Source: an uncultured Verrucomicrobiota bacterium (GTDB taxonomy: Bacteria > Verrucomicrobiota > CALLYA01 > CAYNBQ01). From it: a stretch of DNA of 64,000 nt. Positions 12,736 through 50,482 of this stretch are shown piece by piece. The position numbers were made by a program, and so were the translations under genes. Location: the NCBI GenBank assembly GCA_964395275.1, contig CAYNBQ010000004.1, positions 504 to 64,503 on the forward strand, read 5' to 3'. Under the pieces are notes generated by a model. That model made no database searches. It was given only the letters and a program-made list of their open reading frames with translations, and was not told the DNA's origin. Every line of letters starts with the position of its first letter. Within the stretch, counting starts at the first letter, position 1.

Positions 12736-13713
12736 TCAGATCTCCTCCCGGGCGCGGGTTCCGTTCCGCGCCGCCGCCGTCTCGACCAACCGCGAACAAA
12801 GCTCGCGGAACCCCATCCCGGCCTCCGCGGCGGCCATCGGCAGCAGGCTGGTTTCGGTGAATCCCGGCATGGTGTTCATTTCCAGGACGCAGGGTCGGCC
12901 TTCCCGGGTCAGGATCAGATCGACCCGGCCGAGATCCCGGGTCTGCAGCACCTCCCAGGTCGCCAGGGCGGCGGAGCGCACGGCGTCCTGCTGCCGGGAG
13001 TCGAGATCGGCGGGACAGTGGTACTGCGTTCGCCCCTTGGTGTACTTGGAAACGAAATCGAAGACCGGCCCCGGCGGAACGATCTCCACGATCGGCAGGG
13101 TTCGCCCCCCCAGGATTCCGACGGTCAGTTCCCGTCCCTCGAGCCGTTCCTCGACCAGCACGCGGGAATCGTGCGCGAAGGCCTCCCGCAGGGCCGAATC
13201 GAGTTCCCGCGGTTCCCGGACCAGCGTGATCCCGATGCTGGAGCCCTCCCGGCAGGGTTTCACGACCAGGGGCGGTCGGAAGGGAATCGCGTTGCCTCCG
13301 TCCTCCGGACCCAGGACGCACCACCTCGCCGTCGGAATCCCGACCGAGGCCAGGCGGATCTTCGTTTCCTCCTTGTCGAAGGCCGCCGAGCTGGCGCGCG
13401 CATCGCTGCCGACATACGAAAGGCCGGCCGATTCCAGAAGTCGCTGTACGCCGCCGTCCTCTCCGAACCGGCCGTGCAACGCCGGGAAGACCACGTCGCA
13501 ATCGAAGACCTCGGCCGGAAGCCGTTCGTCGTCGATCTCGACGGCGCGAACGCGATACCCGGCGTCGGCGAGCGCCCGGGCGATCGCCCTGCCGGACCGC
13601 AACGAGACCTCCCGTTCCGAGGACGGACCGCCCATCAGGACGGCGACGCGCGCCGCCGCACTCTCCGGATCCCTCGTTCCGGCGTCGTTCGCCTCTCTCC
13701 GCTCGTCAGGCAT
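12736..13713 (-). CDS. ddl: D-alanine--D-alanine ligase
   Basis: ATP-grasp Ddl family (VAVLMGGPSSEREVSLRSG…PLVVKPCREGSSIGIT…EMNTMPGFT). The start overlaps the stop of the murG-murB ORF. Confidence 0.95.
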   Translation of the reverse strand: MPDERREANDAGTRDPESAAARVAVLMGGPSSEREVSLRSGRAIARALADAGYRVRAVEIDDERLPAEVFDCDVVFPALHGRFGEDGGVQRLLESAGLSYVGSDARASSAAFDKEETKIRLASVGIPTARWCVLGPEDGGNAIPFRPPLVVKPCREGSSIGITLVREPRELDSALREAFAHDSRVLVEERLEGRELTVGILGGRTLPIVEIVPPGPVFDFVSKYTKGRTQYHCPADLDSRQQDAVRSAALATWEVLQTRDLGRVDLILTREGRPCVLEMNTMPGFTETSLLPMAAAEAGMGFRELCSRLVETAAARNGTRAREEI

Positions 13714-15880
13714 GCGATCCTCCCCCGCCTCCGGCGCCGGCGCCCCCGGGGACGAGGAATCCGTCCCCTTCCTGCGCGGAAGACTTCGGACCGGCGTCCT
13801 CGCCGAAGACGATCACCTCCGGTTCCAGATCGATCCCGCGGTCCCGTCGGACCGTCCGTCGGATCCGGTCCATCAGCCAGAGAACGTCCGCCGCCGTGGC
13901 GCCTCCGTCGTTCATGATGAAATTCGCGTGGATCTCCGAGACGTGGGCCCCGCCCCGGCGCAATCCCTTCAGACCGAGTTCCTCGATCAGCCGCCCCGCG
14001 GGAATCCCTTCCGGGTTGCGGAAGGTGCACCCCGCCGTTCTTCCCCCGGGCTGACTCTCCCGGCGCCTGCGGCCGAGTTCCTCGAGCCTTGCGAAGATGC
14101 GCTCCGGATCGGCCGGCGTCCCTTCCAGCTCGACGGCCGTCACGCAGGCCTCGCCGAGTCCGTCGCATCCCCGGTAGCGGAACCCCAGCTCGGCCGGGTC
14201 CCGCCAGGCCGGTTCCCGCCCCGGAACGGCGAGCTGCACGCCGCGCAGGACGTCGACCATCTCCGATCCCATCGCGCCGGCGTTCATCCGCACCGCCCCG
14301 CCGACCGTGCCCGGGATCCCCTCGAGAAACTCCAGGCCGCCGATCCCCCATTCCCGGGCGGCCCGGATCACCGCCTTCAGCGACGCCCCGGCCCCGGCCC
14401 GGATCCGGTTTTCGCCCACGCGCTCGATCCGGGTGAATTCCTCCGAGCGCAACCGGACCACGATCCCCCGCACGCCCCCGTCGCGCACGAGCACGTTCGA
14501 ACCATGTCCCAGGAAATAGACCGGCCAGCCGTTTTCCCGCGCCCAGGTCATCACCCGCGAGAGATCCTCCACGGACGCCGGTTCCACGAAGAGATCCGCC
14601 GCGCCCCCGATTCGGAGCCGCGTGTACCGCGCCATCGGTTCGCCGTGACGCACCACGCTGTCCTGCGAAAGAAGCCGGCGCAGATCCCCGGCCGCGTCGC
14701 GGGCCCTCTCGCCGCCGGGAGGATCGGCCGTTTCCGCCGGGGGCGGCGGGGTCGTGCGCAGCGCGCCCCGGGCGGCCGGATCCAGGTACGCCGTGATCCG
14801 TTCAACGACCCGCTCGGCCGCCGACCTCGGATCGGGCCCTTCGGCGAGGGCGCGGGCCATCCGCCGGAGCCGCTCCGGATCCCGCGCCAGGGAAACGATC
14901 CTCTCGGCCAAGCGTTCCGCGTCCAGGTCGTCCGGATCGATCACCACCGCCGCGCCGTTGCGGGCGTGAATCCCGGCGTTGGCATGCTGGTGGCGATCGG
15001 CCGCGTGGGGATAGGGCACCAGGATCGCGGGCGTCCGGGACGCCGCCAGTTCCGCCAGCGTCCCCGCCCCGGCCCGCGACACGACCAGGTCGGCCGCCGC
15101 GTAGATCCGCCCCATCCGATCCTCGAACTCGATCACCCGGAACCGGCCGGGACGGCCTTCCGCCCCCGTTTCGTGCGCCGGAGCCTTCCCGTGGCCGGCA
15201 AGAAGAATCATGACCGTCCCGGACTCCTTTTCCCGGATCTTTTCGAACGCGTCCCGGGCCGCCCGGTTCAGTTCCTCGGCGCCCTGGCTGCCGCCGATCA
15301 CCGCGATGACGAAGGCGTCCGGATCGAGCCCGAGGGATCGACGCGCCTGCGCCCGATCGACGTTGAAGATCTCCCGGCGCACCGGGATCCCCGTGACCCG
15401 GGAGCGGGCGCCGCCGAGGGGGGGCGACGTCTCCGGCCATCCCAGGAGGACCTCTTCGGCGCCCCGGGCCAGCCATCGGTTCGCGCGTCCGGGGACGGCG
15501 TTGGCCTCGTGGAGAAGAAGCGGGATCCTGCGTCTTCGGGCGGCCAGCGCCGGTACCAGCGTGGGGAATCCTCCCATCGCCAGAAGCACCCGGACATCCC
15601 TCTCCCGCAGCCGGTCGCCGAACCGTCCGGCCTCGATCCAGAGGTTCCAGGCGAACGCGGCAAGTCCCGGCCCCGGCCGCGAAGGCGGTCTGCGCGAGGG
15701 CGCGCGAACGGGCGTCAGCCATTCCGGCAACGACCGCGCCAGGCGTCGGTCGCGCTCGGAATCTCCCGTGCAGAGAAGGACCTCGATCCCGCGCTCGCGC
15801 AACCGTTCGGCGACGGCCACCGCGGGGAAGAGATGTCCCCCGGTGCCGCCCGCCGCGATCGCCGCCGTGCCGTGTGCCAT
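13706..15880 (-). CDS. murG-murB: Fused MurG (UDP-GlcNAc:lipid I GlcNAc transferase) and MurB (UDP-N-acetylenolpyruvoylglucosamine reductase) in one 724-aa ORF
   Basis: N-terminal ~370 aa is MurG (GGTGGHLFPAVAVAERL, GT28 family). C-terminal ~310 aa is MurB (FAD-binding YTRLRIGGAADLF… through the C-terminal substrate domain). No stop codon separates the two parts, and no RBS-preceded internal start is visible. Confidence 0.85.
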   Translation of the reverse strand: MAHGTAAIAAGGTGGHLFPAVAVAERLRERGIEVLLCTGDSERDRRLARSLPEWLTPVRAPSRRPPSRPGPGLAAFAWNLWIEAGRFGDRLRERDVRVLLAMGGFPTLVPALAARRRRIPLLLHEANAVPGRANRWLARGAEEVLLGWPETSPPLGGARSRVTGIPVRREIFNVDRAQARRSLGLDPDAFVIAVIGGSQGAEELNRAARDAFEKIREKESGTVMILLAGHGKAPAHETGAEGRPGRFRVIEFEDRMGRIYAAADLVVSRAGAGTLAELAASRTPAILVPYPHAADRHQHANAGIHARNGAAVVIDPDDLDAERLAERIVSLARDPERLRRMARALAEGPDPRSAAERVVERITAYLDPAARGALRTTPPPPAETADPPGGERARDAAGDLRRLLSQDSVVRHGEPMARYTRLRIGGAADLFVEPASVEDLSRVMTWARENGWPVYFLGHGSNVLVRDGGVRGIVVRLRSEEFTRIERVGENRIRAGAGASLKAVIRAAREWGIGGLEFLEGIPGTVGGAVRMNAGAMGSEMVDVLRGVQLAVPGREPAWRDPAELGFRYRGCDGLGEACVTAVELEGTPADPERIFARLEELGRRRRESQPGGRTAGCTFRNPEGIPAGRLIEELGLKGLRRGGAHVSEIHANFIMNDGGATAADVLWLMDRIRRTVRRDRGIDLEPEVIVFGEDAGPKSSAQEGDGFLVPGGAGAGGGGGSHA

Positions 15881-25653: not shown

Positions 25654-28600
25654 TTATTTTCTTGCGGGACGCAGTTCGATCCGCAGGACGCCGGCGGGCA
25701 CCTCCAGGCAGACGGTTCCGCCTTCCGCCGCCAGCGGAAGATCCTCGGGGCTCCGGCCGGGATCCGCGAAGACCGCCGTCGCCCGGCATCCCTCCGGGCC
25801 GACGCCGCCGGGCAACCGGCCCGCCGGCAACTCCACCCGGAACGCCGGTTCCCCCGGCAACGGCGTCAGCCGGAGAACCCCGTCCCCGGAATCGGGCGGC
25901 GCCAGGAGAAACGCCCCGTTCGTCCGCAGGTCCCCGAACCGGATCATCTTCCGCTCGCGGTTCCAGCGGATCGGTCGCGCCTTGACACCCCCGGCGCCGG
26001 CCGGACGCCAGTGCGAAACCCGCAGGCGCCCCCCGTCCCCGCGGTCGATCCGGAATTCCCCGAGCGGGATCCGCCGGTCCTGCGGGGATGTGCCCGCCGG
26101 CCAGAGACGCCGATCCGTCTCCGGGTTCCACATTCCCGCAAGGATCCGGTACCGGCCCGGCCCGACGTCGTCGGGCACCGTTCCGCTCGCCGTCAGGAGG
26201 ACCTTCTCCGGCCACTCGGCCGAGTCGGGCGCCCCCGGCGCGCCGAGCTGGAAGAGGATTCCGGCGCGGCCGGAATCCGGATCCGCCGCCTCGACATGCA
26301 CGAAGGGGACAAACCCCGCCGGCATCGGCCGGCCGACCCGGAAGGACAGCACCAGCGCGATTCCGTTTCCTTCCGCGCCCGTCGCGCGCAATCCCCTTGC
26401 GCGGATCCAGATCGGGAACCGCGGGTCGGGATCCCGTCCCCGCGCGTTCACGTAGATCCGCCCGTCGGGCCGGCCCGACGATTCGACGATCACCCCGTCC
26501 CGCCGGACCAGTTCGCTCCACCAGTCCGCGCCCCGGGCCGCGAACCCGTACGGGGGAAGCACATCGCCCGTCGGCGTCTTCCAGTCGCGCGCCCCGTCCC
26601 GGTTCACCGCGACCGTCACGATTTCCCCGCCGCCGTCCGCAGGAATCTCCCAGGTCACGATCTGCCGTCGGAGATCGCCCCCGTCGAACCGCACCTCCCG
26701 CACCGACGCACCGCCCAACGCCCGCGCCGCCGGATCGGTCAGCCAGAAATGCCGGACGGTGTTTCGTCCGAAGGCCCGGTCGGTCATGCCCGGATGTCCG
26801 CAGAGGATCTCCGTGGCGATGTAGTCGTCGCTGCCGACCCCGTGATCGATCCGGTCCAGCCCGCCCCGGAACCGTTCGGGATATCCCGCCCCGTGCAGGA
26901 CGAACCGGTCGTGCCAGACGAGATCGATCCACGGAACCCGCGCCGCGGCCTCGCATGGGATCGGCCAGGTCCACTCGGGTTGGGAGGCGTCGACCCGCAG
27001 ATGCTGCGCCTGCGCCCCGTCGAGCGTGCCGATCAACTGATCGTGTCCGGATTCGCTGATCTGCGGGGCGCCGTCGAGGCTCTCGCGCAATACGCGGAAC
27101 GCCTCCGCCCAGCGGTCGCGGGTCTCGACCTGCGAATGGTACGCCCCTTCGCGATCGAACCATCCCATCGGCATCCGCGATGCGAAGACGTCGACGAAAT
27201 AGGCGGTCGGCCCGATCCCCTCCCGGATCCGCCGGATGTTCCGCTGGAGAAACGGCAGGAACCGGTCCGGGCGGAAGAGATAGGATTGCGCGTCGCGCCC
27301 CCGGTTGTACCAGGCCTCCTGGGGACGGCCCCGCGCGTCGAACGCGACGATGTCGTAACTGAATCCGGTGCTGTCGGGGTAGATGTCGATGTAGTTGTCG
27401 TGCAACGCGAAGAGAAGATCGTTGCGATCGCAGAAATCGACCAGTTCCCGGAAATCCTCCACCGAGCCGATCTTCGGGTTCGGCGGATAGACGTCCGGCA
27501 GCCGGTAGTCGTAGCCCCACCGCTGCCAGTTGTGCCACACCACCACCGCGCGGCCCAGGCCGTACTCGAGCGCCCGTTCGAGCTGTTCGCGGACCTCCGC
27601 GGGACGCCCTCCCCAGAGGTCGAATACGAATCGTCCGCGCAACCGGTCCACGCCCGGCGACGCCTCGATTCCCGCCGTCGTCGCCCGGTAGCGGATCGCC
27701 GCCTCGAAGGGCCCGCGAATCCCCGGAACCAGCGTCCAGGTCGCCGGGCCCTCGACGCAGATCGTCGCCGTCCGTTTCGCCGGGTCGAAGACGAACCGCG
27801 AGAGGGGCAGATCCACGGCGCTGACCAGGTCGATTCCCCCCTCGTACCCCACCCCGACGAAACGGGTCGACAGGGAATGACCGTCGGCGTTGAGGACGAA
27901 GGCCTCGGGCCGCAGGATGTAGTTCCCGTCGCCGGCGGCGACGCCGTACGGAACCCGGTCGGCGGGACCGAGCCGGGTCTCGACGATGCGTCGTCCCGAG
28001 GAAACGGCGATCCGGATCCCTTCCTCCAGGGCATCGATCCGCCAGGAGACCCACGTCTCGCCCCGGCGGTCCAGCAGCGGCAGACGGATCGTGCGCGATC
28101 CGTCGGGCCGGGTCTGCACCTCGACCGTCCCCGCCGGCCGCGGTCCGCCTTCCGCGCCGACCGCGCCCGTCTCCAGGCGGACGCGGATCCCGCGAATCGC
28201 CAGATCCCGGCCGTTCCCGGCCGACACGGCGATCCAGCCGTCGACCAGTCCCAGCGTTCCGGGCCCTACCGCGATCCCGATCGGCTCCTCCCCCGCGAGA
28301 ATCCGCCGGCGCCAGAGTCCGGCAACGTCCGGACCGGGATCTCTTTCCTCCAGCGCGACCCGGGCCGCCTCGATCGCCGGGGCGGGGTCGCCCGGCGGCA
28401 GTTCGAGGGTTTCCGGGGACCGGACGTCCGGGGCCGGCTGCGGCTGATCCGGACAACCCGATTCCCAGGAGGCCAGCACTCCCGCCGATTCGGTCGCGCC
28501 ACCCAGCCTCAGCAACTCGAACGCGCCGGCGTCGCGCCAGTACGCTCCGTCCCGGGTCCCCAGAACCAGCTCGCGTTCGCGCGATCCCTCGTCGGCGTCC

Positions 28601-29538
28601 CCGACGATCACCTTGAACCCGAGTTCCGCCCCGGCGGCGGGACGAACGCCGAGCAACGGCCAGGGCACCTTCAACCACAGCCGGTATCCCCCCTCTTCGC
28701 GGAAGGTCCGGCATTCGCACCGGCACCCGCGGGGAGGATCCGGCCGGGGGCCGTCGTACCGGACCGCCCGGATCCTCGGACGATCGTCGGGACCGAAGGG
28801 AAGAATCGCCAGCACCAGATCGTCGTCGCGCAGGGGAGTCTCCCGATCCCTCGGCGCGGGATCGGCGCCCAGGTAGACCCGCACGTAATCGCTGTCCCGG
28901 AAATCCGGGCTCACCAGGTCGTCGCCGGCGATCACGTCGTCCCAGACGCGGACCACCAGGTGCAGGACCTCTTCGTCGTAAAGGACGCCGACCCTCACCT
29001 CGATTTCCGTCGAAGGACCGGCCTCGACGTTCCGGGCGAAGGCGCGGACCGCCGCGTCGACCGCCCCCTCCGGGCGGGCGGCCACCGTCACCGCGCGCGG
29101 CGGACGCCGGATCCGGGCCGGCCGGCGACACCGTACCAGCGCGATCGCGTGCAACGAGATGCGATCCGCGGAATCGGCCGAACCGACGGCCAGCCGGCCG
29201 TGAACGGGATAGAGGCCGTCGACCGTCGCCTCGCCCGGTCGAAAGACGAAAGTCTCCTCGAGGACCGATCCGGCCTTCACCGACACGGGGCGGATCGTTT
29301 CGCCCTCGGGGATCCACTCCGGCAGCGATTCAAGCCCCAGCATGCCGTCGAACCCCTCGTCGCGCTCGTTGCGGATCCGCGCGACGATCCGCACCGAATC
29401 TTCGCCGGGCCCGACCTCCGCGGGCGCCGCCAGTTCGAGGGTCACGCCGTCTTTTTCATCCACCGGCGGGTCGAAGGCCAAGGCACGAATCGAACCGACG
29501 AGCAGAAGGACCGGGATCCAGCAGGTATTCCGCAACAC
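25654..29538 (-). CDS. Very large (1294 aa) secreted protein with a putative TIM-barrel glycoside-hydrolase-like central domain
   Basis: Signal peptide (MLRNTCWIPVLLLVGSIRALA). Central region (VVVWHNWQRWGYDYRLPDVYPPNPKIGSVEDFRELVDFCDRNDLLFALHDNYIDIYPD) resembles glycoside-hydrolase catalytic cores. Exact family not assignable by eye. Confidence 0.7.
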   Translation of the reverse strand: MLRNTCWIPVLLLVGSIRALAFDPPVDEKDGVTLELAAPAEVGPGEDSVRIVARIRNERDEGFDGMLGLESLPEWIPEGETIRPVSVKAGSVLEETFVFRPGEATVDGLYPVHGRLAVGSADSADRISLHAIALVRCRRPARIRRPPRAVTVAARPEGAVDAAVRAFARNVEAGPSTEIEVRVGVLYDEEVLHLVVRVWDDVIAGDDLVSPDFRDSDYVRVYLGADPAPRDRETPLRDDDLVLAILPFGPDDRPRIRAVRYDGPRPDPPRGCRCECRTFREEGGYRLWLKVPWPLLGVRPAAGAELGFKVIVGDADEGSRERELVLGTRDGAYWRDAGAFELLRLGGATESAGVLASWESGCPDQPQPAPDVRSPETLELPPGDPAPAIEAARVALEERDPGPDVAGLWRRRILAGEEPIGIAVGPGTLGLVDGWIAVSAGNGRDLAIRGIRVRLETGAVGAEGGPRPAGTVEVQTRPDGSRTIRLPLLDRRGETWVSWRIDALEEGIRIAVSSGRRIVETRLGPADRVPYGVAAGDGNYILRPEAFVLNADGHSLSTRFVGVGYEGGIDLVSAVDLPLSRFVFDPAKRTATICVEGPATWTLVPGIRGPFEAAIRYRATTAGIEASPGVDRLRGRFVFDLWGGRPAEVREQLERALEYGLGRAVVVWHNWQRWGYDYRLPDVYPPNPKIGSVEDFRELVDFCDRNDLLFALHDNYIDIYPDSTGFSYDIVAFDARGRPQEAWYNRGRDAQSYLFRPDRFLPFLQRNIRRIREGIGPTAYFVDVFASRMPMGWFDREGAYHSQVETRDRWAEAFRVLRESLDGAPQISESGHDQLIGTLDGAQAQHLRVDASQPEWTWPIPCEAAARVPWIDLVWHDRFVLHGAGYPERFRGGLDRIDHGVGSDDYIATEILCGHPGMTDRAFGRNTVRHFWLTDPAARALGGASVREVRFDGGDLRRQIVTWEIPADGGGEIVTVAVNRDGARDWKTPTGDVLPPYGFAARGADWWSELVRRDGVIVESSGRPDGRIYVNARGRDPDPRFPIWIRARGLRATGAEGNGIALVLSFRVGRPMPAGFVPFVHVEAADPDSGRAGILFQLGAPGAPDSAEWPEKVLLTASGTVPDDVGPGRYRILAGMWNPETDRRLWPAGTSPQDRRIPLGEFRIDRGDGGRLRVSHWRPAGAGGVKARPIRWNRERKMIRFGDLRTNGAFLLAPPDSGDGVLRLTPLPGEPAFRVELPAGRLPGGVGPEGCRATAVFADPGRSPEDLPLAAEGGTVCLEVPAGVLRIELRPARK

Positions 29539-29761
29539 CGTCGCACCTCCACATTTCCACCGCGCGCTCGCCGCGCCTCCGCTCCGGATCCCCCGCGACC
29601 GCGGCCCGTTCGGTGCGGCGGCCCGCCGGGCCGCGGCATTCTATCCGATCCCGGGAGCGGCTCCAACGCCGACCGCGTCGGGTCCGCTTGCGATTCCCCG
29701 GGCATGGGCTATTGGTTTCTTTCCGGGCGATCCGCCCGCCGCAGCCGGAGGATACGAAACC

Positions 29762-31015
29762 ATGAGCGAACTGATCCGGGATCGACGACGACGCAAAGAC
29801 CTCCTGAAACACATGATCCACCAGCTTCATTCGGGAGAGGCGCCCGAAGCGGTGCGCCCCCGGTTGATGCAGCTGCTCGGCCGGGTTCCCTACGACGAGG
29901 TCGTCGAGGTGGAGGAGGAACTCATCGCGGAAGGAATGGATCCGGCCGAGATCCTCCGCCTGTGCGACATCCACACCGCCGCCCTGCAGGGTGCGCTCGA
30001 CTCGGGACCTCCGCCCGACCTGCCTCCGGAACATCCCGCCCAGGTCCTGCGCGCGGAGAACCAGGCCCTCGGCTGGGAACTGGAGGGCCTGGAAAAGCTC
30101 TTCCGGCGCCTGGCGGAGATGCCGGACGACGAGGACGCCTCCGAACTCATGCACGACGTCCGCGTGCGGTTCAACGCCCTGACGGACGTGGAAAAGCATT
30201 ACCGGCGCAAGGAAAACCTCGTCTTTCCGTTCCTGGAGAAACACGGCATCACCGGTCCGCCGACGGTCATGTGGGGCAAACACGACGAGGCCCGGGCCCT
30301 GCTGCGCGCCGCCGTCGAATCCCTCGAGGCCGCCGGTTCGATCACCGCCGGGGAAGCCCGCACCGTGGTCGATCTCGTCCTGCGCCCCGCCGTCGAGGCC
30401 GTTGCGGGGATGATCGACAAGGAGGAACAGATCCTTCTGCCGATGTGTCTGGAAACGCTGAGCGACGAGGAGTGGTACGAGATCGCCCGCGGCAGCGAGG
30501 AGATCGGCTACTGCCTCGTCGCCCCCGAAACCGTCTGGCGTCCGGAAGGCGTGCGGGAACCGCCGCCGGCCGCGGCGACGACCGACTCCGGGCGGATCCG
30601 CCTGCCGACCGGCGCCTTCACCCCGACGGAACTCGAGGCGATCCTTAACACGATCCCGTTCGACATCACCTTCGTCGACGCCGACGACACCGTGCGCTAT
30701 TTCAGCCACGGTCGCGAGCGGATCTTCGCCCGGACCCGCGCCGTCCTCGGTCGGAAGGTCCAGTATTGCCACCCCCCGAAGAGCGTCCATATCGTCCGGA
30801 AGATCCTTGACGATTTCCGGAACGGGCGCGAGGACCACGCCCGGTTCTGGATCGAACTGGACGGCCGGTTCCTCTGCATCGAGTACTTCGCACTGCGGGA
30901 CGCCGACGGCGGTTTTCTCGGCACCCTGGAGGTCAGCCAGGATCTCACCGAAAAGCGGGCGCTGAAGGGCGAACAGCGGTTGCTGAACTACGTGTCGAAG
31001 GCGGACTCGAAATGA
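29762..31015 (+). CDS. DUF438 domain protein (hemerythrin-like HHE region + DUF438 + PAS-like C-terminus)
   Basis: MSELIRDRRRRKDLLKHMIHQLH… with the DUF438 core and a C-terminal PAS-like fold (ILNTIPFDITFVDADDTVRYFS). ATG at 29762 has a GGAGGA RBS. Confidence 0.85.
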   Translation: MSELIRDRRRRKDLLKHMIHQLHSGEAPEAVRPRLMQLLGRVPYDEVVEVEEELIAEGMDPAEILRLCDIHTAALQGALDSGPPPDLPPEHPAQVLRAENQALGWELEGLEKLFRRLAEMPDDEDASELMHDVRVRFNALTDVEKHYRRKENLVFPFLEKHGITGPPTVMWGKHDEARALLRAAVESLEAAGSITAGEARTVVDLVLRPAVEAVAGMIDKEEQILLPMCLETLSDEEWYEIARGSEEIGYCLVAPETVWRPEGVREPPPAAATTDSGRIRLPTGAFTPTELEAILNTIPFDITFVDADDTVRYFSHGRERIFARTRAVLGRKVQYCHPPKSVHIVRKILDDFRNGREDHARFWIELDGRFLCIEYFALRDADGGFLGTLEVSQDLTEKRALKGEQRLLNYVSKADSK

Positions 31016-31539
31016 GCGACGAAACGCAGAAACCGGCGATCACGCCGGACCTCAAGATCGGCGATCTCCTGGACGCCTGGCCGGAGCTGGAAGATCTCCT
31101 CATCGAAACGATCCCGGCCTTCTCCAGGCTCCGCAATCCCGTTCTGCGCCGCACCGTGGCGAGGGTGACCACGATCCACCAGGCCGCCAGGGTCGGCGGC
31201 GTTTCCCTGGGCGACCTGATCACCCGCCTGCGCCGGGCCGTCGGACAGGAGGAAGATCCGCCGCCGGACGCGGGGGAAGCGGATGGGGACCGTCCCGCCT
31301 GGCTGGAGGGGATCCGGCCGAAGAACGTCCTGGACGCCCGCGCCATGATCGAAGAAGGCGGACATCCCCTGGGCGAGGTTGTCGCCGCCGTGCGGGAACT
31401 CCGGCCGGGCGAGGCCTACGGGCTGGTGACCCCCTTCGTTCCGGCGCCGTTGATCGACCGGGTCCGCGCCCTCGGGTGCGACGCCTGGACCGAACGGCGC
31501 GGGCCCGACGAATACCTGACGATCTTCCGGAAACGCTGA
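31012..31539 (+). CDS. DUF1858 + DUF2249 domain protein
   Basis: N-terminal DUF1858 (ITPDLKIGDLLDAWPELEDLLIETIPAFSRLRNPVLRRTVARVTTIHQAA) and C-terminal DUF2249 (LDARAMIEEGGHPLGEVVAAVRELRPGEAYGLVTPFVPAPL). ATGA overlap with the DUF438 gene. Confidence 0.8.
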   Translation: MSDETQKPAITPDLKIGDLLDAWPELEDLLIETIPAFSRLRNPVLRRTVARVTTIHQAARVGGVSLGDLITRLRRAVGQEEDPPPDAGEADGDRPAWLEGIRPKNVLDARAMIEEGGHPLGEVVAAVRELRPGEAYGLVTPFVPAPLIDRVRALGCDAWTERRGPDEYLTIFRKR

Positions 31540-31679
31540 GGCCCGGAAAGGAACCGCGCCTCGGGGAAACGCTCCCGCACCGGCGCCGGCCCCGGTCCCT
31601 TTACGGAAGCGACGCCGTGCGGAGCTTCGTAGAAGGGCCCCGTCCCTCTCCCCTTCTCCGGGGTGAGATCACCCCGGCT

Positions 31680-32270
31680 CCACGGGTTTTCCTTCGCGGG
31701 ACGAAGGAATCGGCCGACCCTACTCCGTCCCGCCCGCCGGGTGGAACTTCCTCCTTCGTTCCGGAAATCCGGAACTACGGAGGACAAGTCGAAGGGCAAG
31801 CCGGGATCGGCCTCCTACTCTGCTCTCCAGAACCTGGGGCGGTAACCCAAGAAAGTAGGAGCCCGACCCCGTTCGGGCGATCGAGATTCACGGAGCGGCC
31901 GCGCGGCGCATCGTCCTTCGCGGGGCGGAACGCGACGGGAGCGTCCCGGATCCGGCAGGTTTTCCTTCGCGGGCTGAACGGGTCGGCCGATAGGGATCGG
32001 CCTCCTACTCTGGTTTCCAGAACCTGCGGCGGTAACCCAAGAAAGTAGGAGCCCGACCCCGTTCGGGCGACCGTTTGCGTTCGCCATGGCGCGGGCGGAA
32101 AGATCGAGATTCACGGAGCGACCGCGTGGCGGGGCGCCCTTCGCGGGTCGGAACGCGACGGGGGCGTCCCGGATCCGGCAGGTTTTCCTTCGCGGGTTGG
32201 GGGAATCGGCCGAACTTTGCTTCGTCCCGCCCGCGGGGCGGGCGGCTGTTGGGGATTGTCGCCGGCGGCG
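31680..32270. repeat. Tandem array (about 2.5-3 units of ~190-210 nt) of a multi-hairpin structured repeat; locus A of a dispersed family
   Basis: Period ~189 nt (gatcggcctcctactctg at 31806 and again at 31995). Each unit holds three hairpins: GGCCTCCTACT-[25-30 nt variable loop]-AGTAGGAGCCC; GCCCGA-cccc-GTTCGGGC; and TTCCTTCGCGGG…CGAAGGAA. The ORFs called across this region carry no protein signal. Confidence 0.7.
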
Positions 32271-32317
32271 ATCGGAGATAGAAGGATCCCCCACCCCAAC
32301 CGGGAGGAAAAGAATCC

Positions 32318-38011: not shown

Positions 38012-39226
38012 GTGAAACCAGGAACGATCCGTCCGGCCGCCGCCGCGCTTTTCCCCCTTTTCTTCGCCGCCGCAGCCGTCTTCGCACAGCGACCCGACAT
38101 CGAGGTCGTCAAGAGCCCGACGAGCCGGCCCCGGCTGGCGATCGGCCCCTTCTCGGGCGACCAGGGCAAGGCCCTGGCCGAGATCGTCCGCAACGATCTC
38201 GCGATCAACGGATCGTTCGAAATGGCCGCCCCGGCGTCCGCGGACTACATCGTCCGGGGATCGGCCGAGTCGAAGGGAGGCTCGCCCGCGGCCGTCTGCC
38301 GGATCTTCGCCGGGGGGACAACCCGCCAGATCCAGGGCCGCAGCTACAAGGGAGGCGATCTCCGGGCCCTGGCCCACCGGATCAGCGACGACATCGTCGA
38401 AACGCTCACCGACCTCAAGGGAATCGCCCGGACGAAGATCGCCTTCATCTCGAACCGGACCGGCAAGAAAGAACTTTACATCATGGACTACGACGGGCAC
38501 CGGGTCCGGCAGTTGACCCGCGACCGGTCGATCAGCGTCGCGCCGGCCTGGACCCCGGACGGACGGAAAATCGTCTACACCTCCTACCGGCTCGGCTGGC
38601 CGGACGTCTACCTGATCGATCTGGCCGCAGGAAAACGGCGGCGGATCTCGGCCTTCCCCGGGTTGAACAGCGGGGCCGCCGTCTCGCCGGACGGCCGGTG
38701 GATCGCCCTGACCCTGAGCCGGGACCGCAATCCCGAACTCTACCTGCTGCCCCTGACCGGCGGCACCCCGCGGCGGCTGACCCGAACCCCCCGGGCCGGG
38801 GAGGCCTCGCCGACATGGTCGCCCGACGGCCGCCGGATCGCCTACGTGTCCGACATGGCCGGCACGCCCCAACTGTACATGATCTCCTCCAACGGCGGCG
38901 CGCCCCAGCGGATCACGCGCACCGGCAGCGAGAACGTCGAACCGGACTGGTCGAGGGCGAACGGGCTGATCGCCTTCGTGACGCGGCGGGGCGGCCGGTA
39001 CCGGACCGCCCTCTACGACCCGAACACGCGCGAGGCGCGTATCCTGACGCCGGCCGACGCCGACTACCAGGATCCCTCCTGGGCGCCCGACGGGGTCCAC
39101 CTGGTCTGCAGCCGCACGGTCCGGTACCGGTCCGACCTGGTGATTCTGGACACCCGCGACGGAAAGATCGTTCCGATCACGCGGAACATGGGCGACTGCC
39201 ATTCCCCGGCCTGGTCGCCGCGCTGA
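38012..39226 (+). CDS. tolB: Tol-Pal system beta-propeller protein TolB
   Basis: Signal peptide, TolB N-terminal domain and six-bladed WD40-like repeats (PAWTPDGRKIVYTS, AAVSPDGRWIALT, ASPTWSPDGRRIAYVS…). GTG start 1 nt after the tolA stop. Confidence 0.9.
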   Translation: MKPGTIRPAAAALFPLFFAAAAVFAQRPDIEVVKSPTSRPRLAIGPFSGDQGKALAEIVRNDLAINGSFEMAAPASADYIVRGSAESKGGSPAAVCRIFAGGTTRQIQGRSYKGGDLRALAHRISDDIVETLTDLKGIARTKIAFISNRTGKKELYIMDYDGHRVRQLTRDRSISVAPAWTPDGRKIVYTSYRLGWPDVYLIDLAAGKRRRISAFPGLNSGAAVSPDGRWIALTLSRDRNPELYLLPLTGGTPRRLTRTPRAGEASPTWSPDGRRIAYVSDMAGTPQLYMISSNGGAPQRITRTGSENVEPDWSRANGLIAFVTRRGGRYRTALYDPNTREARILTPADADYQDPSWAPDGVHLVCSRTVRYRSDLVILDTRDGKIVPITRNMGDCHSPAWSPR

Positions 39227-39567
39227 TCGACCCGGACGAGGCGCGGAGGATCCCGACCCGCGAAGGACGACCTGCCGGAGCCGGAACGCCCCCGTTTCCC
39301 TTGCGCGACGCGGATTCGCCTCCGCAACGCTCTCTTTCGCAGGATTTCGCGGCGGACCGGCCGCCGCCGACCGCCTTGGGACTTGATTCCCCGCATTTCA
39401 TGCTCGATTCTGGCAGGTGTCGCGTGCATCGTGACGCCGTGGAACGTATCCTTCCCGCGAAACGGACCGGGGAGACCGGTTCCCGCGTCGGCAACCCGGC
39501 GGTTGCAGGACGCTTCGATGGGAGAAGTTGCGGGTAAGAAACGGGGGCCTGGGCCCGGGAGGAGTCG

Positions 39568-40128
39568 ATGTCGACCGTACGGAGAATCGGAATCGAACTG
39601 GTCATCGGAATCGTGTTGGTGAGCTTCGTCACCGGATGCGGCAAGCCGAAGACGCGAGCCCAGGAGCGATGGACCCAGGCCGACGGCAGCATTTCCGAAA
39701 TCGAGGATTTCAACACCGGACTGGCCTATGAACCCGGCGTCGAAGACGCCCTCGCCGCGCGTCCCGCCGAAGGCGCGGCCCTGGAAACGATCGAGGGGCA
39801 GTTCCAGAACGTCCTGTTCGACTTCGACAGCGCCGTCATCCGGCCCGATCAGATGCCGGTCCTCGACGCCGTGGCGGATTACCTGCTGCAGAATCCGGAC
39901 GAGTACGTGCTGATCGAGGGACATTGCGACGAGCGGGGCAGCCGGGAATACAACCTGGCGCTCGGCGAACGCCGCGCACAGGCCGCCCGGGATTATCTCA
40001 TCGCCGCCGGCGTCGATCCCGCGCGAATCCAGACGAGAAGTCTCGGCGAAGAAGACCCGGTCGATCCGGGGCACAACGAGGCCGCGTGGCGGCTGAACCG
40101 CCGGGCGGAATTCCAACTGATCCGGTAG
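39568..40128 (+). CDS. pal: Peptidoglycan-associated lipoprotein Pal (OmpA-C domain)
   Basis: Lipobox (LVSFVTGCG) and OmpA-like domain (NVLFDFDSAVIRPDQMPVLDAVADYL…IEGHCDERGSREYNLALGERRAQA). Confidence 0.9.
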   Translation: MSTVRRIGIELVIGIVLVSFVTGCGKPKTRAQERWTQADGSISEIEDFNTGLAYEPGVEDALAARPAEGAALETIEGQFQNVLFDFDSAVIRPDQMPVLDAVADYLLQNPDEYVLIEGHCDERGSREYNLALGERRAQAARDYLIAAGVDPARIQTRSLGEEDPVDPGHNEAAWRLNRRAEFQLIR

Positions 40129-43843: not shown

Positions 43844-44362
43844 ATGCGAACGGATTCCCGGAATTCGCATCCCGATCCCGTGCGGAGCGGCCCTTTTCAC
43901 GTGGTTCTCGTGGAACCGGAGATCCCGCCGAACACCGGAACCGTCGCCCGCCTCTGCGCCGCGGTCCGATGCCCCCTGCACCTGGTCGGAGAACTCGGGT
44001 TCCGTCTCGACGAACGCCGCCTGCGCCGCGCGGGCCTCGACTACTGGCCGTGGGTCGATCTGCGATACCACGAATCCCTGGCGACGTATCTCGATTCGCT
44101 TGAGGAATCGGGGGGCCGGCCCTGGCTCTTCACCACCGCCGGAGACCGGCTCTACACGTCGGCGCGGTTCCGGCCGGGCGATCACCTCGTCTTCGGCAGC
44201 GAGACCCGCGGTCTTCCCGCGGAACTCCATGCGCGGTTTCCGGATCGCCGGCTCCGGATCCCGATCCTGGAATCCGCCGTGCGGAGTCTGAACCTCGCGA
44301 CGGCCGTGGCGATCGGGTTGTACGAAGCCCTCCGGCAATGCGGCTTCGATTCCGCAGGATGA
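43844..44362 (+). CDS. trmL: tRNA (cytidine(34)-2'-O)-methyltransferase TrmL (SpoU/TrmH family)
   Basis: FHVVLVEPEIPPNTGTVARLCAA… LVFGSETRGLP… LNLATAVAIGLYEALRQ: SPOUT-class small methyltransferase. Confidence 0.85.
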   Translation: MRTDSRNSHPDPVRSGPFHVVLVEPEIPPNTGTVARLCAAVRCPLHLVGELGFRLDERRLRRAGLDYWPWVDLRYHESLATYLDSLEESGGRPWLFTTAGDRLYTSARFRPGDHLVFGSETRGLPAELHARFPDRRLRIPILESAVRSLNLATAVAIGLYEALRQCGFDSAG

Positions 44363-44369
44363 CGGCGGC

Positions 44370-44765
44370 GTCCGGCTCCACGGGTCGTCCTTCGCGGGAA
44401 TGAAGGGATCGGCCGACCCTACTTCGTCCCATAGGGACTTCGAAGGGCACGGAGGGATCGGCCTCCTGCTCTGGTTTCCATGAACTCCGCCGGAAATCTC
44501 AACAGAGTAGGAGCCCGACCCCGTTCGGGCGATCCGTGCCGCCCCGCATATCGGAATCGGCCGACCCTCCTCCGCCCCGCACCGCAGGCGCAGGGCTTCC
44601 TCCTTCGTCCCGAGGCCGCGGAACTTCCTCCTTCGTCCCGAGGCTCCGGGACTACGGAGGACAAGACGAAGGGCACGGAGGGATCGGCCTCCTACTCTGC
44701 CGACAACGCCGCTCGGATACCCCAAAGTAGGAGCCCCGCGTCTGCGGGGCGATCCGCAGCAACGC
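44370..44765. repeat. Locus B of the same structured repeat family (two full units plus partial units)
   Basis: Carries gatcggcctcct(a/g)ctctg…agtaggagccc(g) and the second hairpin in two variants (gcccga-cccc-gttcgggc; ccccgc-gtct-gcgggg), plus the upstream cttcctccttcgtcccgaggctccggga…ggaggacaagacgaagg module seen at locus A. It lies between convergent trmL and the M50 protease gene. Confidence 0.7.
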
Positions 44766-44806
44766 GGCCTGAAAGGCCGCCGGTCCTCAGCCCGGGGCAA
44801 CCGCCG

Positions 44807-45463
44807 TCAGGCGGGGAACCCCAGGAGCCGCATCATCCCTGCCAGCCCCCAGAAGGCGGCGATGCCCAGCCAACGGCCGAAGTCGAAAACCACGAAGAGA
44901 ACGATCACCGCGAAAAAGCCGTAGCGGCTGATCCGCATGTACGTGGCCGGGCTCATGCGGACGACGTGGCGCAACAGATGCGATCCGTCCAGCGGCGGGA
45001 CGGGAAGCAGGTTGAACAGCCCGAGGAAGATCGAGATCAACGCCATTTCCAGTCCGTACGAAGCGAAGGACTCGATGGCCGACTGCGCCGACGGCAACAG
45101 CAGCGCGATCCGGATCGTCCCCAGGACGAGAAACGCCAGCACCAGGTTCGAGAAGGGCCCGGCCAGGGATACCAGGACGTCGTCCCGCCTCGGATGACGC
45201 ATCCGCGCCGGGTTCACCGGCACCGGTTTTCCCCAGCCGATGATGAAGCCGCCCGTGATCAACCCGAGCAGGGGCAGGATCACCGTGCCCAACCGGTCCA
45301 TGTGGGGAATCGGATCCAGGGTCATCCGCCCGGCCGACTTCGCCGTATCGTCGCCGCACCGGTGGGCCGCCCACGCATGGGCCCACTCGTGCACCGTCAG
45401 GATCGGGATGAACATCAGGTAGCGCAGGGCCACGTCGACCCAGTCGGTCTGCATCAGGTTCAA
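44807..45463 (-). CDS. Site-2 protease family (peptidase M50) membrane metalloprotease
   Basis: HEWAHAWAA (HExxH) in a TM helix and the distal LDGSHLL motif; multi-TM. Confidence 0.8.
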   Translation of the reverse strand: MNLMQTDWVDVALRYLMFIPILTVHEWAHAWAAHRCGDDTAKSAGRMTLDPIPHMDRLGTVILPLLGLITGGFIIGWGKPVPVNPARMRHPRRDDVLVSLAGPFSNLVLAFLVLGTIRIALLLPSAQSAIESFASYGLEMALISIFLGLFNLLPVPPLDGSHLLRHVVRMSPATYMRISRYGFFAVIVLFVVFDFGRWLGIAAFWGLAGMMRLLGFPA

Positions 45464-46853: not shown

Positions 46854-48299
46854 TCAATACTGCCGCCGGAGATTCGAAGGCAGGATGTTCAGTTCCTGGC
46901 GGTACTTGGCGATCGTGCGCCGGGCGATCTTCACGCCCTGTTCCTTGAGGATCTCGACGATCTCCTGGTCCGAAAGGGGACGGGTCGGATCCTCGCGGGC
47001 GATCAGGTCGGCGATGGTCTCCTTCACCGCGACGTTCGACATCTGCTGGCCGGAATCCGTCGTGTAGCCGGGCGAGAAGAAGAACTTCATCTCGTAGATC
47101 CCCTGCGGCGTCTCCATGTACTTGCCGGAGATGGCCCGGCTTACCGTCGTCTCGTGGACGCCGACCCGCTCGGCGATCTGCGCCATGGTCAGGGGCTTGA
47201 GATAACCGATCCCCTTTTCCAGGAACTCCCGCTGGTGGCGGACGATTTCCACGGCGATGTTGCGGATCGTCTGCTGCCGCTGGTGGATGCTCTTGATCAG
47301 GAACTTCCCGGAACGGATCTTGTCGCGGACGTAGTCGCGCGTCTTCGGATCGGCCGACTCCTGCCGCATGAGCCGGCGATACTGCTTGCTGATGCGCAGG
47401 TGCGGGATCTGTTCGTCGTTGAGGATCACCACGTATTCGTCGTCGACCTTGCGCACGACCACGTCGGGGATGATGTAGTGATCCGGTTCCGCGCTGAAGG
47501 CCCGTCCCGGCTTGGGTTCCAGCGTGGCGATCAGGTTGGCCGCTTTCTGGACCTCGTCGACCGACACGCCCAGGGCGCGGGCGATCTCCGGGTAGCGTTT
47601 CTTGCCCAGGGCGTCCAGGTGTCCGGCCACGATCCGGGCGGCGAGCGTCTTGCCCTGGCCGACCCGGTCGAGCTGCAGCAGGAGGCATTCGCGCAGATCG
47701 CGGGCGCCGACCCCCACCGGGTCGAAGGACTGCACCAGTTCCAGGATCGGTTCGAGATCCTTCGGCTCCAGGCCCGAGGCGTGCGCGAGATCCTCCAGGG
47801 AAGAGGAGAGATAGCCGGAATCGTCGATGCTGCCGATCACCAGCTCGGCCAGCCGCCTCCTGCGGGTGTCCAGATCGGTCATCTCCAGCTGGGCCAGGAG
47901 ATGGTCTTGGAGCGTTTCCTGCTTGACGATGCTGTCGAGCATGAACCGGCGCCGTTCCTCGTCTTCGGAACTCGGCTGCCGCACGGCGCTGCTCTGGAAG
48001 AAGTATTCCCGCCACTCGTCGTCGAGCTGCGCCAGCTCTTCGAACTCCTTCTGGAAATCGTCTTCGACCTCGTTTTCCTTCTTCTTGTCGTTCGATTCGG
48101 TGATCCCCGGTTCGATCTCCAGGTTCACGTTGTCCACCGGACGCTCCTCGAGCGTCGGATTCGTGCGCAGCTCCTCCTGCACCATCTGCCGCAATTCCAG
48201 CAGCGGCACCTGCAGCACCTGCAACGACTGCTGGAGCTGCGGCGCCAGGATCTGCACCTGCGACAGACGCTGAACCTGTTGAAGTCCCTGTTGAGGCAT
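46854..48299 (-). CDS. rpoN: RNA polymerase sigma-54 factor RpoN
   Basis: Gln/Leu-rich N-terminal region I (MPQQGLQQVQRLSQVQILAPQLQQSLQVLQ), a core-binding region, the C-terminal HTH, and the RpoN box (ARRTIAKYRQEL). ATG at 48299. The ORF-track N-terminal extension to 49385 is spurious, as it overlaps the MBL gene on the other strand. Confidence 0.95.
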   Translation of the reverse strand: MPQQGLQQVQRLSQVQILAPQLQQSLQVLQVPLLELRQMVQEELRTNPTLEERPVDNVNLEIEPGITESNDKKKENEVEDDFQKEFEELAQLDDEWREYFFQSSAVRQPSSEDEERRRFMLDSIVKQETLQDHLLAQLEMTDLDTRRRRLAELVIGSIDDSGYLSSSLEDLAHASGLEPKDLEPILELVQSFDPVGVGARDLRECLLLQLDRVGQGKTLAARIVAGHLDALGKKRYPEIARALGVSVDEVQKAANLIATLEPKPGRAFSAEPDHYIIPDVVVRKVDDEYVVILNDEQIPHLRISKQYRRLMRQESADPKTRDYVRDKIRSGKFLIKSIHQRQQTIRNIAVEIVRHQREFLEKGIGYLKPLTMAQIAERVGVHETTVSRAISGKYMETPQGIYEMKFFFSPGYTTDSGQQMSNVAVKETIADLIAREDPTRPLSDQEIVEILKEQGVKIARRTIAKYRQELNILPSNLRRQY

Positions 48300-48470
48300 C
48301 GTCTCTCTTCTCGGATTCCCGTCGGTTGGACCGGCCGCCGGCCGGCTCGATCGCAGTTCCTCCGCGTGTGGCGCCACCTTACCCCGTCTTTCCCGCAACG
48401 TCGAGCCGGTATCGGGTTGACCCCGCACAGGCCGGCTCCGATGATGAACGCACCAACGGAGGAAAACTCG

Positions 48471-49259
48471 ATGCGGTTCTGCGTGCTCGGCAGCGGCAGC
48501 CGGGGGAACAGCACGGTCGTCGCGCATTCGAAGGGCGTTCTGCTCCTCGATGCCGGGCTTTCGTGCCGCGCGGTGGAGAACCGCTTGCGGGAGGCCGCCG
48601 GCATCCCGCTGGAAGACGTCGAGGGCATCCTGATCAGTCACGAACACGCCGATCACGCGCGCGGACTCGATGTTCTCCTCCGGCGCTGCCGGGCCCCGGT
48701 CTACTGCAACCGCGAGACGTTCAACGCGCTGCAGTCGATCTGGCCGCGACTCGAGCGCAGCCGGTTCCGCCTTTTCTCCACCGGACGGGAGTTCGAGGCG
48801 GCGGGCTTCCGCCTCTTCCCCTTTTCGGTATCCCACGACGCCATGGACCCGGTCGGGTTCCGGATCGAGAACGGCGACGCGCGCCTGGCGGTGGTCACCG
48901 ATCTCGGCCGGCCCACGCACCTGGTGGCCGAACACGTCCGCGGATGCGACGCCGTCATTCTGGAGTTCAACCACGAACCGGAGATGCTCCAGGAATCGCC
49001 CCGCCCCTGGTCGCTCAAGCAGCGGGTTCTCGGTTCCCAGGGGCATCTGTCGAACGGCCAGGGCGCCGCCCTCCTGCAGGCGGCCCTTTCCCCGCGGCTG
49101 CGCTGGGCCGTGCTGGCGCATCTCAGCGCCGAATGCAACGATCCGGAGACCGCGCTGGACTACGCGCGCGAGGCCCTTCGCCGGCGCAGCGGCAACGGGA
49201 TCCGGCTTCTCGTCGCCGATCAGCGGACCCCGACGGACCCGGTGAACCTGGCGGGATGA
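48471..49259 (+). CDS. MBL-fold metallo-hydrolase
   Basis: HxHxDH motif (ILISHEHADHARGL) in a beta-lactamase-like fold. It is the 3' part of ORF 47154..49259, whose upstream portion is antisense to rpoN. Confidence 0.85.
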   Translation: MRFCVLGSGSRGNSTVVAHSKGVLLLDAGLSCRAVENRLREAAGIPLEDVEGILISHEHADHARGLDVLLRRCRAPVYCNRETFNALQSIWPRLERSRFRLFSTGREFEAAGFRLFPFSVSHDAMDPVGFRIENGDARLAVVTDLGRPTHLVAEHVRGCDAVILEFNHEPEMLQESPRPWSLKQRVLGSQGHLSNGQGAALLQAALSPRLRWAVLAHLSAECNDPETALDYAREALRRRSGNGIRLLVADQRTPTDPVNLAG

Positions 49260-49378
49260 CCACGCAACCGCAGGCCCGGGCCGCCGCGGGGGCCTCCGGC
49301 CCTCCGCCTTTGACACGGGCCGCGGGGCCATGATACCAAGGCCTTCCACGACACCGACCCCATGGAGATGAGCGGACG

Positions 49379-50482
<1,104 letters not shown>

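Follow-up and report, generated by a model that had tools for sequence, protein, structure and literature searches.

Mosaic intergenic repeats in an uncultured Kiritimatiellota-like bacterium: a probable lineage-specific family of REP/REPIN/BIME-like palindromic DNA elements

Repetitive extragenic palindromic (REP) sequences, which are conserved imperfect palindromes of ~20-40 nt, and the composite elements built from them, are the closest described counterparts of the repeats considered here. REPINs are inverted REP doublets around a less conserved spacer, of which the key traits are length and hairpin formation, and compensatory changes in them are common; they also form clusters, in which the REPIN and its flanks are repeated in tandem with a short unrepeated stretch in between, over up to ~700 bp (Bertels and Rainey, PMC3116915). 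In Escherichia coli, the 5' GTAG at the foot of a GC hairpin of the REP is needed for binding and cleavage by TnpA_REP, a REP-associated transposase (RAYT) (Messing et al. 2012, PMC3479197), and recruitment of IHF, which binds the bacterial interspersed mosaic elements (BIMEs) of the same organism, has been mentioned as well (PMC3479197). We analysed a stretch of 64,000 nucleotides (hereafter, the window; contig CAYNBQ010000004.1 of assembly GCA_964395275.1) from an uncultured Verrucomicrobiota bacterium, in which a repeat family occupies three loci, namely A (31674-32245, ~570 bp), B (44372-44754) and a partial locus C (39252-39307, minus strand). An earlier note on this DNA, made from the letters alone, had described loci A and B as tandem arrays of a three-hairpin unit under selection for structure. 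Judged by analogy with the systems above, the loci are probably clusters of a lineage-specific REP/REPIN/BIME-like family of repetitive extragenic palindromic DNA.

The repeat family is real and far beyond chance. Comparison of the window with itself revealed blocks common to 31674-32250 and 44372-44760 with 86-100% identity. The 18-mer GATCGGCCTCCTACTCTG has three exact occurrences (31805, 31995 and 44682) and one with a single mismatch (44456), and at up to three mismatches it gave six matches where shuffles predict 0.06; for AGTAGGAGCCCGACCCCGTTCGGGCGA the count is three, with zero expected. The 14-mers and 16-mers that occur most often in the window all originate from the repeat modules, with the arms of one of them (module M3) supplying five of the seven top 16-mers, which is the same signal by which REPs were detected. 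All repeat copies are extragenic, lying between called genes in DNA with no codon-position GC bias; the longest stretches of the window that lack this bias are loci A and B and a third region, 39181-39601, which holds locus C. Profile hidden Markov models (HMMs) of all four modules and an unfiltered covariance model (CM) of M3 identified no further copies elsewhere in the 64 kb.

Instead of tandem arrays of a ~190-nt unit, the loci proved to be mosaics of four modules, M1 to M4, of which the window contains five to six (X/M1), two (M2), four (M3) and two (M4) copies. The order at locus A is M1-M2-M3-M4-M3, then 29 unrepeated nucleotides, then M4-M1', while locus B reads M1-short hairpin-M3-M1'-M2-M3 and is devoid of M4. 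The M3 copies are 190 nt apart at locus A and 226 nt apart at locus B, and the M4 copies of locus A are separated by 223 nt. The recurrence of a unit start at locus A, which the earlier note had placed at 31806 and 31995 with a period of 189, was confirmed including its second position; the first start is 31805 and the period 190.

Module M3 consists of an arm of 17 nt (17-18 nt) present as an inverted doublet around an interior of 27-36 nt. Both arms represent the same 17-mer read from the centre outwards, the left one as AGTAGGAGGCCGATCCC on the minus strand and the right one as AGTAGGAGCCCGACCCC on the plus strand, with GTAG adjoining the spacer in each. The basic building block of the family is a sequence of ~17 nt starting with GTAG, in the forms AGTAGGAG-GCCGATCCC and AGTAGGAG-CCCGACCCC and in an M1 variant, GTAGG-GTCGGCCGAT (the minus strand of M1 carries the arm variant GTAGGGTCGGCCGAT, reading GTAGGG), and it is usually trailed by a short GC-rich hairpin. 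Seven of the eight M3 arms read AGTAGGAG, the remaining arm being AGCAGGAG; of the ten AGTAGG words counted in the 64 kb over the two strands, nine lie in loci A and B. In all four right arms GTAGGAG is followed by a GC hairpin of 5-7 bp. The left-arm hairpins vary between the four M3 copies (A1 and A2 at locus A, B1 and B2 at locus B), being clear in A2 (6 bp, GCCGAT-AGGG-ATCGGC), weak in A1 (4 bp) and ambiguous in B1 and B2. Copy A2 is almost symmetric, with a mirror-image left hairpin, and the M3 CM also scores its reverse strand, at 47 bits. Recurrent boxes of invariant sequence are present in both orientations, the K core ~12 times and CCTTCGCGGG seven plus one times.

As predicted by folding, M3 can adopt a long hairpin as single-stranded DNA or RNA. 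The two hairpins drawn in the earlier note, hairpin 1 and hairpin 2, share their GCCC bases, and in copies A1, A2 and B1 the segment CCCGACCCC has two alternative partners, GTTCGGG downstream (hairpin 2) or GGGATCGG upstream. The upstream pairing, which extends hairpin 1 to 15 bp, is the fold preferred by both RNAalifold and RNAfold.

Between the loci, differences affect 0-1 of 28 positions in the M3 arms as opposed to 10-20 of 32 in the interior (Fisher p 7e-3 to 1e-7). With the arms near-invariant and the interior diverged, the M3 stem is conserved as sequence and not merely as pairing. This kind of conservation suggests that the arms are recognised, or that intact copies alone propagate, and not that an RNA helix evolves freely. 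It had been argued in the earlier note that the loops diverge completely while the stems co-vary, and that stem-preserving substitutions of this kind mark selection on structure rather than on sequence. The loops and both versions of hairpin 2 quoted there are in the sequence as written, but the divergence is graded and not complete: A1 and A2 differ at only 3 of 32 interior positions, the locus A copies and B1 at 10-13, and B2 and the other copies at 17-20, and the loops of A2 and B1 can be aligned through GGTTTCCA(T)GAAC.

The proposed co-variation held in part. In hairpin 2, copy B2 alone has double-sided changes, at two pairs (G-C replaced by C-G and A-U by G-C), and comparison of the two M2 copies shows one compensated pair, T-A versus C-G, in the hairpin. 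Hairpin 1 displays no compensatory change, seven of its eight pairs being invariant and one altered from A-U to G-U (copy B1, plus strand), and no pair of the 15-pair long hairpin is changed on both sides among the four M3 sequences. The double-sided count of hairpin 2 was equalled by 33 of 500 shuffles; it is not significant because both changes lie in one copy of only four sequences, and they may go back to one event or to the replacement of a module. No statistically supported covariation was found in the proposed helices among the four M3 sequences, a set of very low power, two of its members being recent duplicates. Since compensatory changes are also reported for REPIN hairpins (PMC3116915), they cannot tell an RNA from a DNA repeat. 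With the main stem conserved in sequence and lacking covariation, the argument for selection on structure rather than on sequence did not withstand the analysis.

Set against REPINs, M3 has the same layout of two conserved short inverted sequences around a less conserved spacer, with a long predicted hairpin in single-stranded DNA or RNA; the extragenic position, the compensatory changes and the arm sequences as the most abundant 16-mers are further likenesses. Locus A spans ~570 bp and, with its pair of M3+M4 units at a 190-nt spacing and an unrepeated insert of 29 nt, resembles a REPIN cluster. These inverted arms with GTAG, the less conserved spacer and the tandem clusters including flanks support the REP-like option, which the earlier note had offered beside an ncRNA and a riboswitch-like element. 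The differences are that four doublets were seen here as opposed to hundreds in SBW25, that the arms are of 17 nt and some of them are not palindromic alone, and that the host is a Kiritimatiellota-like bacterium of the Planctomycetes-Verrucomicrobia-Chlamydiae (PVC) group and not a gammaproteobacterium, with no sequence similarity of its repeats to known REPs. The E. coli REP/BIME system is similar in its several short palindromic motifs forming a mosaic with a different order at each locus (M1-M4 at A, B and C), in the conserved GTAG near a GC-rich imperfect hairpin, and in its sites after stop codons, between convergent genes and within operons. Unlike in E. coli, the motifs are different, GAG stands between GTAG and the hairpin, and most modules are co-oriented and not alternating, although the two arms of M3 are inverted.

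Other described elements are more distant. Miniature inverted-repeat transposable elements (MITEs), such as Correia/NEMIS, RUP and ERIC, are likewise small, non-coding and intergenic, with inverted ends and hairpin potential; in contrast to them, the present element has no target-site duplication, is much shorter (~80 nt) and has its modules shuffled and not fixed. Rfam RNA families, including Acido-Lenti-1 (RF01687), share with it a GC-rich, hairpin-forming intergenic sequence in a PVC bacterium, but the gathering score was reached by none. A CRISPR array, already dismissed in the earlier note, is incompatible with the inverted arms and long mosaic modules, and Tandem Repeats Finder reports no array at the loci.

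Locus A starts with M1 (31674-31731, plus strand), composed of the X box CCGGCTCCACGGGTTTTCCTTCGCGGG with a hairpin TTCCTTCG/CGAAGGAA and the palindromic core GGAATCGGCCGACCCTAC (GTAGGGTCGGCCGATTCC in minus-strand reading). The X box pattern of M1 is CCGGnTCC..GGTTTTCCTTCGCGGG, followed by this core; the module has 90% identity to 44372-44430 (nhmmer E = 3e-20) and corresponds to inverted repeat I19. It is followed by M2 (31743-31804, plus strand; inverted repeat I3; 88% identity to 44620-44700), a nested hairpin in which TCCTCC..GGAGGA encloses GTTCCGG-AAAT-CCGGAAC, with CAAGTCGAAGGGCA after it (CGAAGGGCA in the nested pattern). The M3 copy A1 (31802-31882, plus strand) consists of the left arm CGGGATCGGCCTCCTACT, a 34-nt interior, the right arm AGTAGGAGCCCGACCCCG, the hairpin GCCCGA-CCCCGT-TCGGGC and GATC; it scores 101.5 bits with the CM and corresponds to inverted repeat I2, with 18-nt arms that are 89% complementary. 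M4, of 112 nt, includes two CCTTCGCGGG boxes and closes with a second X box. Its copy a (31883-31990, plus strand; 88-92% identity to 32102-32213) contains these boxes and the palindrome CCGGATCCGG, and its last ~45 nt (31947-31990) carry the second X box, ending GGGTCGGCCGA and matched by the M1 HMM with E = 4.6e-10. Copy A2 of M3 (31992-32072, plus strand) is 95-96% identical to A1 and forms inverted repeat I1, with 46-nt arms that are 72% complementary. The unrepeated 29 nt (32073-32101) lie between the two tandem units, and the locus terminates with M4 copy b, a degenerate M1 GGAATCGGCCGAACTTTGCTTCGTCCCGCCCGC and a closing hairpin CCGCCCGC/GCGGGCGG (32102-32245, plus strand; inverted repeat I21), the M1 match after copy b spanning 32170-32241 (nhmmer E = 1.7e-17). 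Upstream of the locus are a DUF438/hemerythrin/PAS gene and a DUF1858/DUF2249 gene (31012-31539, plus strand), and downstream a GH106-like gene. It should be mentioned that a perfect 9-bp hairpin, CCGGGGTGA-GA-TCACCCCGG, stands at 31658-31677 directly before the first module, whose first bases it includes; the DUF438/DUF1858 operon may have had this as its native 3' hairpin, with the repeats accumulating beside it.

Locus B begins 10 nt past the stop codon of a SpoU/TrmL-type methylase gene (43844-44362, plus strand) and faces a convergent M50 peptidase gene downstream (44807-45463, minus strand). It opens with M1 and, in place of M2, a short hairpin CCCTACTTCGTCCC-ATA-GGGACTTCGAAGGG (44372-44455, plus strand). 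Copy B1 of M3 (44453-44534, plus strand; CM score 104.6 bits) has one change in its left arm, CTCCTGCT, resulting in a G-T/G-U pair on the plus strand. Then follow a partial M1 core AATCGGCCGACCCTCCTCCGCCCC, a 21-nt tandem segment and M2 (together 44553-44681, plus strand, with M2 at 44620-44681), and finally copy B2 (44679-44754, plus strand; CM score 85.2 bits), with the same arms, a shorter interior and GCCCCGC-GTCT-GCGGGGC as its second hairpin. The 21-nt segment CTTCCTCCTTCGTCCCGAGGC is doubled in tandem with a 28-nt period (44596-44616 and 44624-44644), a case of small-scale slippage or duplication.

The third locus, overlooked in the earlier note, is a partial M4/X copy (39252-39307, minus strand) ~25 nt past the tolB stop in the tolB-pal spacer, detected with 90% identity over 40 nt by blastn and with E = 6.5e-7 by the M4 profile in nhmmer. 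The gene context given previously for the other two loci (DUF1858/DUF2249; trmL between convergent genes) was borne out by the gene calls, and their placement 3' of plus-strand genes holds; locus C, however, breaks this rule, being antisense within the tolB-pal operon, so that the element is present in both orientations relative to transcription. The spacer (39227-39567) measures 341 nt here versus 87 nt in the nearest relative found (L075, tolA-tolB-pal, 63% TolB identity), and only ~50 nt adjoining pal (GGGGGCCTGGGCCCGGGAGGAGTCGATG) are conserved. Since it is the pal-proximal part that is conserved, the extra ~250 nt represent an addition, and the locus C repeat sits in this extra DNA beside the tolB stop. 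The extra spacer DNA also holds TTCGCGGG-type boxes at 39345 (plus strand) and 39454 (minus strand).

The named TolB homologues belong to Kiritimatiellae, Lentisphaerae or Verrucomicrobiota, with 63% identity for the best non-self match and at most 52% for the others; judging from these protein matches, the host is a PVC bacterium (Kiritimatiellota-like) without close relatives in the searched collections. No modules were found in the two relatives fetched, L075 and L073 (76% identity over the DUF438 protein, GC 58%). Among GTDB representative genomes, the pattern GGCCTCCTACT-N15-45-AGTAGGAGCC gave two matches, both by chance; a slightly degenerate arm pattern yielded 70 matches in JGI metagenomes, all of them in coding sequences or by chance, and arm, M1 and X-box patterns gave chance matches only in IMG/VR. 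Plasmid and phage collections returned no match with blastn.

The comparison with Rfam that the earlier note had suggested identified no family at gathering score in the whole window; at E <=10 there were sub-threshold matches only, mostly to generic miRNA-type hairpins. The only near-hit to a bacterial family, a weak match to Acido-Lenti-1 (44765-44825, minus strand; 21.4 bits where the gathering score is 37; E = 0.014), is located outside the repeats, just past the M50 peptidase stop codon, where it overlaps a hairpin GCGGCC-TGAAA-GGCCGC (44764-44780); it may be no more than a terminator-like hairpin.

Two further classes of candidates were considered and rejected. A coding repeat is contradicted by periods of 190, 223 and 226 nt, which are not multiples of 3, by a flat GC content by codon position (0.69/0.64/0.68) and by the substitutions between loci A and B in M2, which are mostly non-synonymous in the shared open frame; a protein search with the translated repeat open reading frame (ORF; 31815-32294, minus strand) revealed no homologue. 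Integrons with attC sites, retrons, bridge or omega RNAs and riboswitches were dismissed on the grounds that the required neighbouring genes are absent and that locus B has no co-oriented downstream gene.

Several rival explanations have to be weighed against a REP/REPIN-like family. The repeats could be structured non-coding or cis-acting RNAs, i.e. 3' untranslated region (UTR) stabilisers, terminators or attenuators, or small RNAs, with the hairpins selected as RNA. We consider this unlikely, notwithstanding that the units fold better than shuffled sequence (per-unit z from -1.5 to -3.8; -2.3 and -3.8 for the whole loci on the plus strand), that double-sided changes exist in hairpin 2 and M2, that copy B1 has its G-U pair on the plus strand, that the modules of loci A and B all run in the direction of the upstream gene, and that CCCGACCCC, pairing upstream or downstream, offers alternative structures. 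The main stem is invariant in sequence without covariation, the double-sided changes of hairpin 2 are confined to one copy at a count reached by shuffles, and compensatory changes are reported in REPIN DNA repeats too (PMC3116915). The minus strand folds as well or better in most single units, B1 with its plus-strand G-U pair being the exception, and gives z of -5.5 at both loci, so the predicted folds of the two strands provide conflicting hints. Predicted folds of the composite units differ from unit to unit and are not conserved, locus C is antisense to its operon, and neither a sigma-70-like promoter nor a canonical intrinsic terminator (stem and T-run on the plus strand) was found at the repeats, nor did they match Rfam. 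An undescribed functional system of PVC bacteria appears similarly doubtful; this would be either a REPIN-like population kept by an unrecognised domesticated Kiritimatiellota transposase or a multi-hairpin RNA family with a CCCGACCCC switch, and in the latter version the upstream/downstream switch might control how the 3' end of the preceding gene is formed or how its translation terminates.

A MITE, that is a non-autonomous derivative of a DDE-type insertion sequence (IS) with the 17-18-nt M3 arms serving as terminal inverted repeats for an IS transposase encoded elsewhere, would account for an M3 of ~70-80 nt with conserved inverted ends and a variable interior, for the extragenic and clustered occurrence, and for the extra DNA in the tolB-pal spacer compared with the relative. 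We nevertheless regard it as improbable, and as less likely than a REP/REPIN-like family, because there is no target-site duplication around M3 or the composite M1-M3 unit and conservation does not stop at the inverted arms but extends into flanks that the copies share (GTTCGGGCGATC and, on the opposite side, GAAGGGCA..GG). The scanned ORFs of the window include no IS or transposase, plasmids and phages gave no match, and the layout of GTAG plus hairpin in tandem clusters with flanks is more typical of REP/REPIN. Plain segmental or tandem duplication of non-coding DNA with neutral decay, involving neither family nor function, would suit the presence of three known loci only, the evident local tandem origin of A1/A2 and of both M4 copies (88-96% identity) and the lack of copies in the public collections searched. 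It is very unlikely given the strongly uneven divergence, in which almost invariant arms accompany an interior diverged by 30-60%, unlike neutral decay, given the recombination of modules in different order, number and orientation at A, B and C, and given the consistently palindromic nature of the pieces; the earlier note had disfavoured a decayed duplication as well, and we concur. Finally, short invariant boxes recurring in both orientations might form a binding-site array for a nucleoid-associated or regulatory DNA-binding protein of the host that recognises the GGGATCGGCC / CCTTCGCGGG boxes. There is a precedent for protein binding in E. coli BIMEs, which bind IHF and gyrase. As a separate explanation it seems highly improbable, as no candidate regulator gene lies beside the loci and the three flanking gene sets are functionally unrelated, and it is compatible with a REP/BIME assignment and not an alternative to it.

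Under the favoured REP/REPIN/BIME-like interpretation, the arms would be held constant through recognition by a trans-acting protein, by analogy a single-copy Y1/HUH RAYT, a gene that REPs usually flank, or another transposase. Propagation would be restricted to copies with intact arms, with the spacer drifting within hairpin-forming limits. The element would insert into the few long intergenic gaps, often beside stop codons or existing hairpins, and subsequent local tandem duplication including flanks would generate the mosaics of loci A and B. REPs of E. coli affect mRNA 3' end stability or translation termination. When transcribed within a 3' UTR or operon spacer, the hairpins described here may secondarily do the same. 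Mobility, the enzyme and any RNA effect are all inferred.

A number of points weigh against this interpretation. High genome-wide copy number, in the tens to hundreds, is a defining feature of REPs, while only three loci were seen in 64 kb. No Y1/RAYT or other transposase and no IS was found by Pfam scan among the ~47 ORFs of the window, although this is core chromosome (the dcw cluster, tolQRAB-pal and rpoN), and neither a target-site duplication nor an excision footprint was seen at the repeats. The case for mobility comes from one spacer comparison at 63% protein identity, with the family present in no second genome. With their uneven left-arm hairpins, not every arm matches the classical palindromic REP. 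The modules of loci A and B all share the orientation of the upstream gene and are inverted only at C, and a transcribed RNA element would look alike. Furthermore, REPIN/RAYT systems have been characterised mainly in Gammaproteobacteria (PMC5581495), and the analogy is an extrapolation for a PVC bacterium.

Some other features of the window were recorded alongside the repeats. An uninterrupted ORF of 724 aa (13706-15880, minus strand) contains MurG domains (Glyco_transf_28 N and C) followed by those of MurB (FAD_binding_4, MurB_C) and, by its domain order, looks like a MurG-MurB fusion within the dcw cluster. The sigma-54 (RpoN) ORF (46854-49385, minus strand) comprises 843 aa from a TTG start, with Pfam domains only from residue ~370, which reflects either a long N-terminal extension or a true start further downstream. 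CTAG is strongly avoided, with 3 occurrences against 34 expected from trinucleotides; an apparent enrichment of GATC (932 sites, 14.6 per kb) was rejected, being fully explained by trinucleotide composition (ratio 1.06). Two long ORFs overlap on opposite strands, one of 1294 aa (25654-29538, minus strand) and one of 1545 aa (26011-30648, plus strand), with coding-type GC3 and a weak DUF5696 match for the minus-strand ORF alone; long antisense shadow ORFs are common in a 68% GC genome and could mislead gene callers.

The repeats would be elements of a rather ordinary kind found in an unusual lineage: a structured RNA is not demonstrated and no new mechanism is opened. For annotation they call for some caution: palindromic repeats at the DNA level are expected to combine conserved stems with variable loops and to show a few compensated pairs, and this combination is not to be taken as evidence of an RNA gene. 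REP/REPIN-type repeats have been studied almost only in Proteobacteria, and a sequence-unrelated family with REPIN anatomy in a deep-branching, uncultured Kiritimatiellota-like lineage would, if the assignment is true, widen the known range of such elements. In that case the REP-like family would also be of use in typing strains and in judging how well metagenome-assembled genomes of this kind have been assembled.

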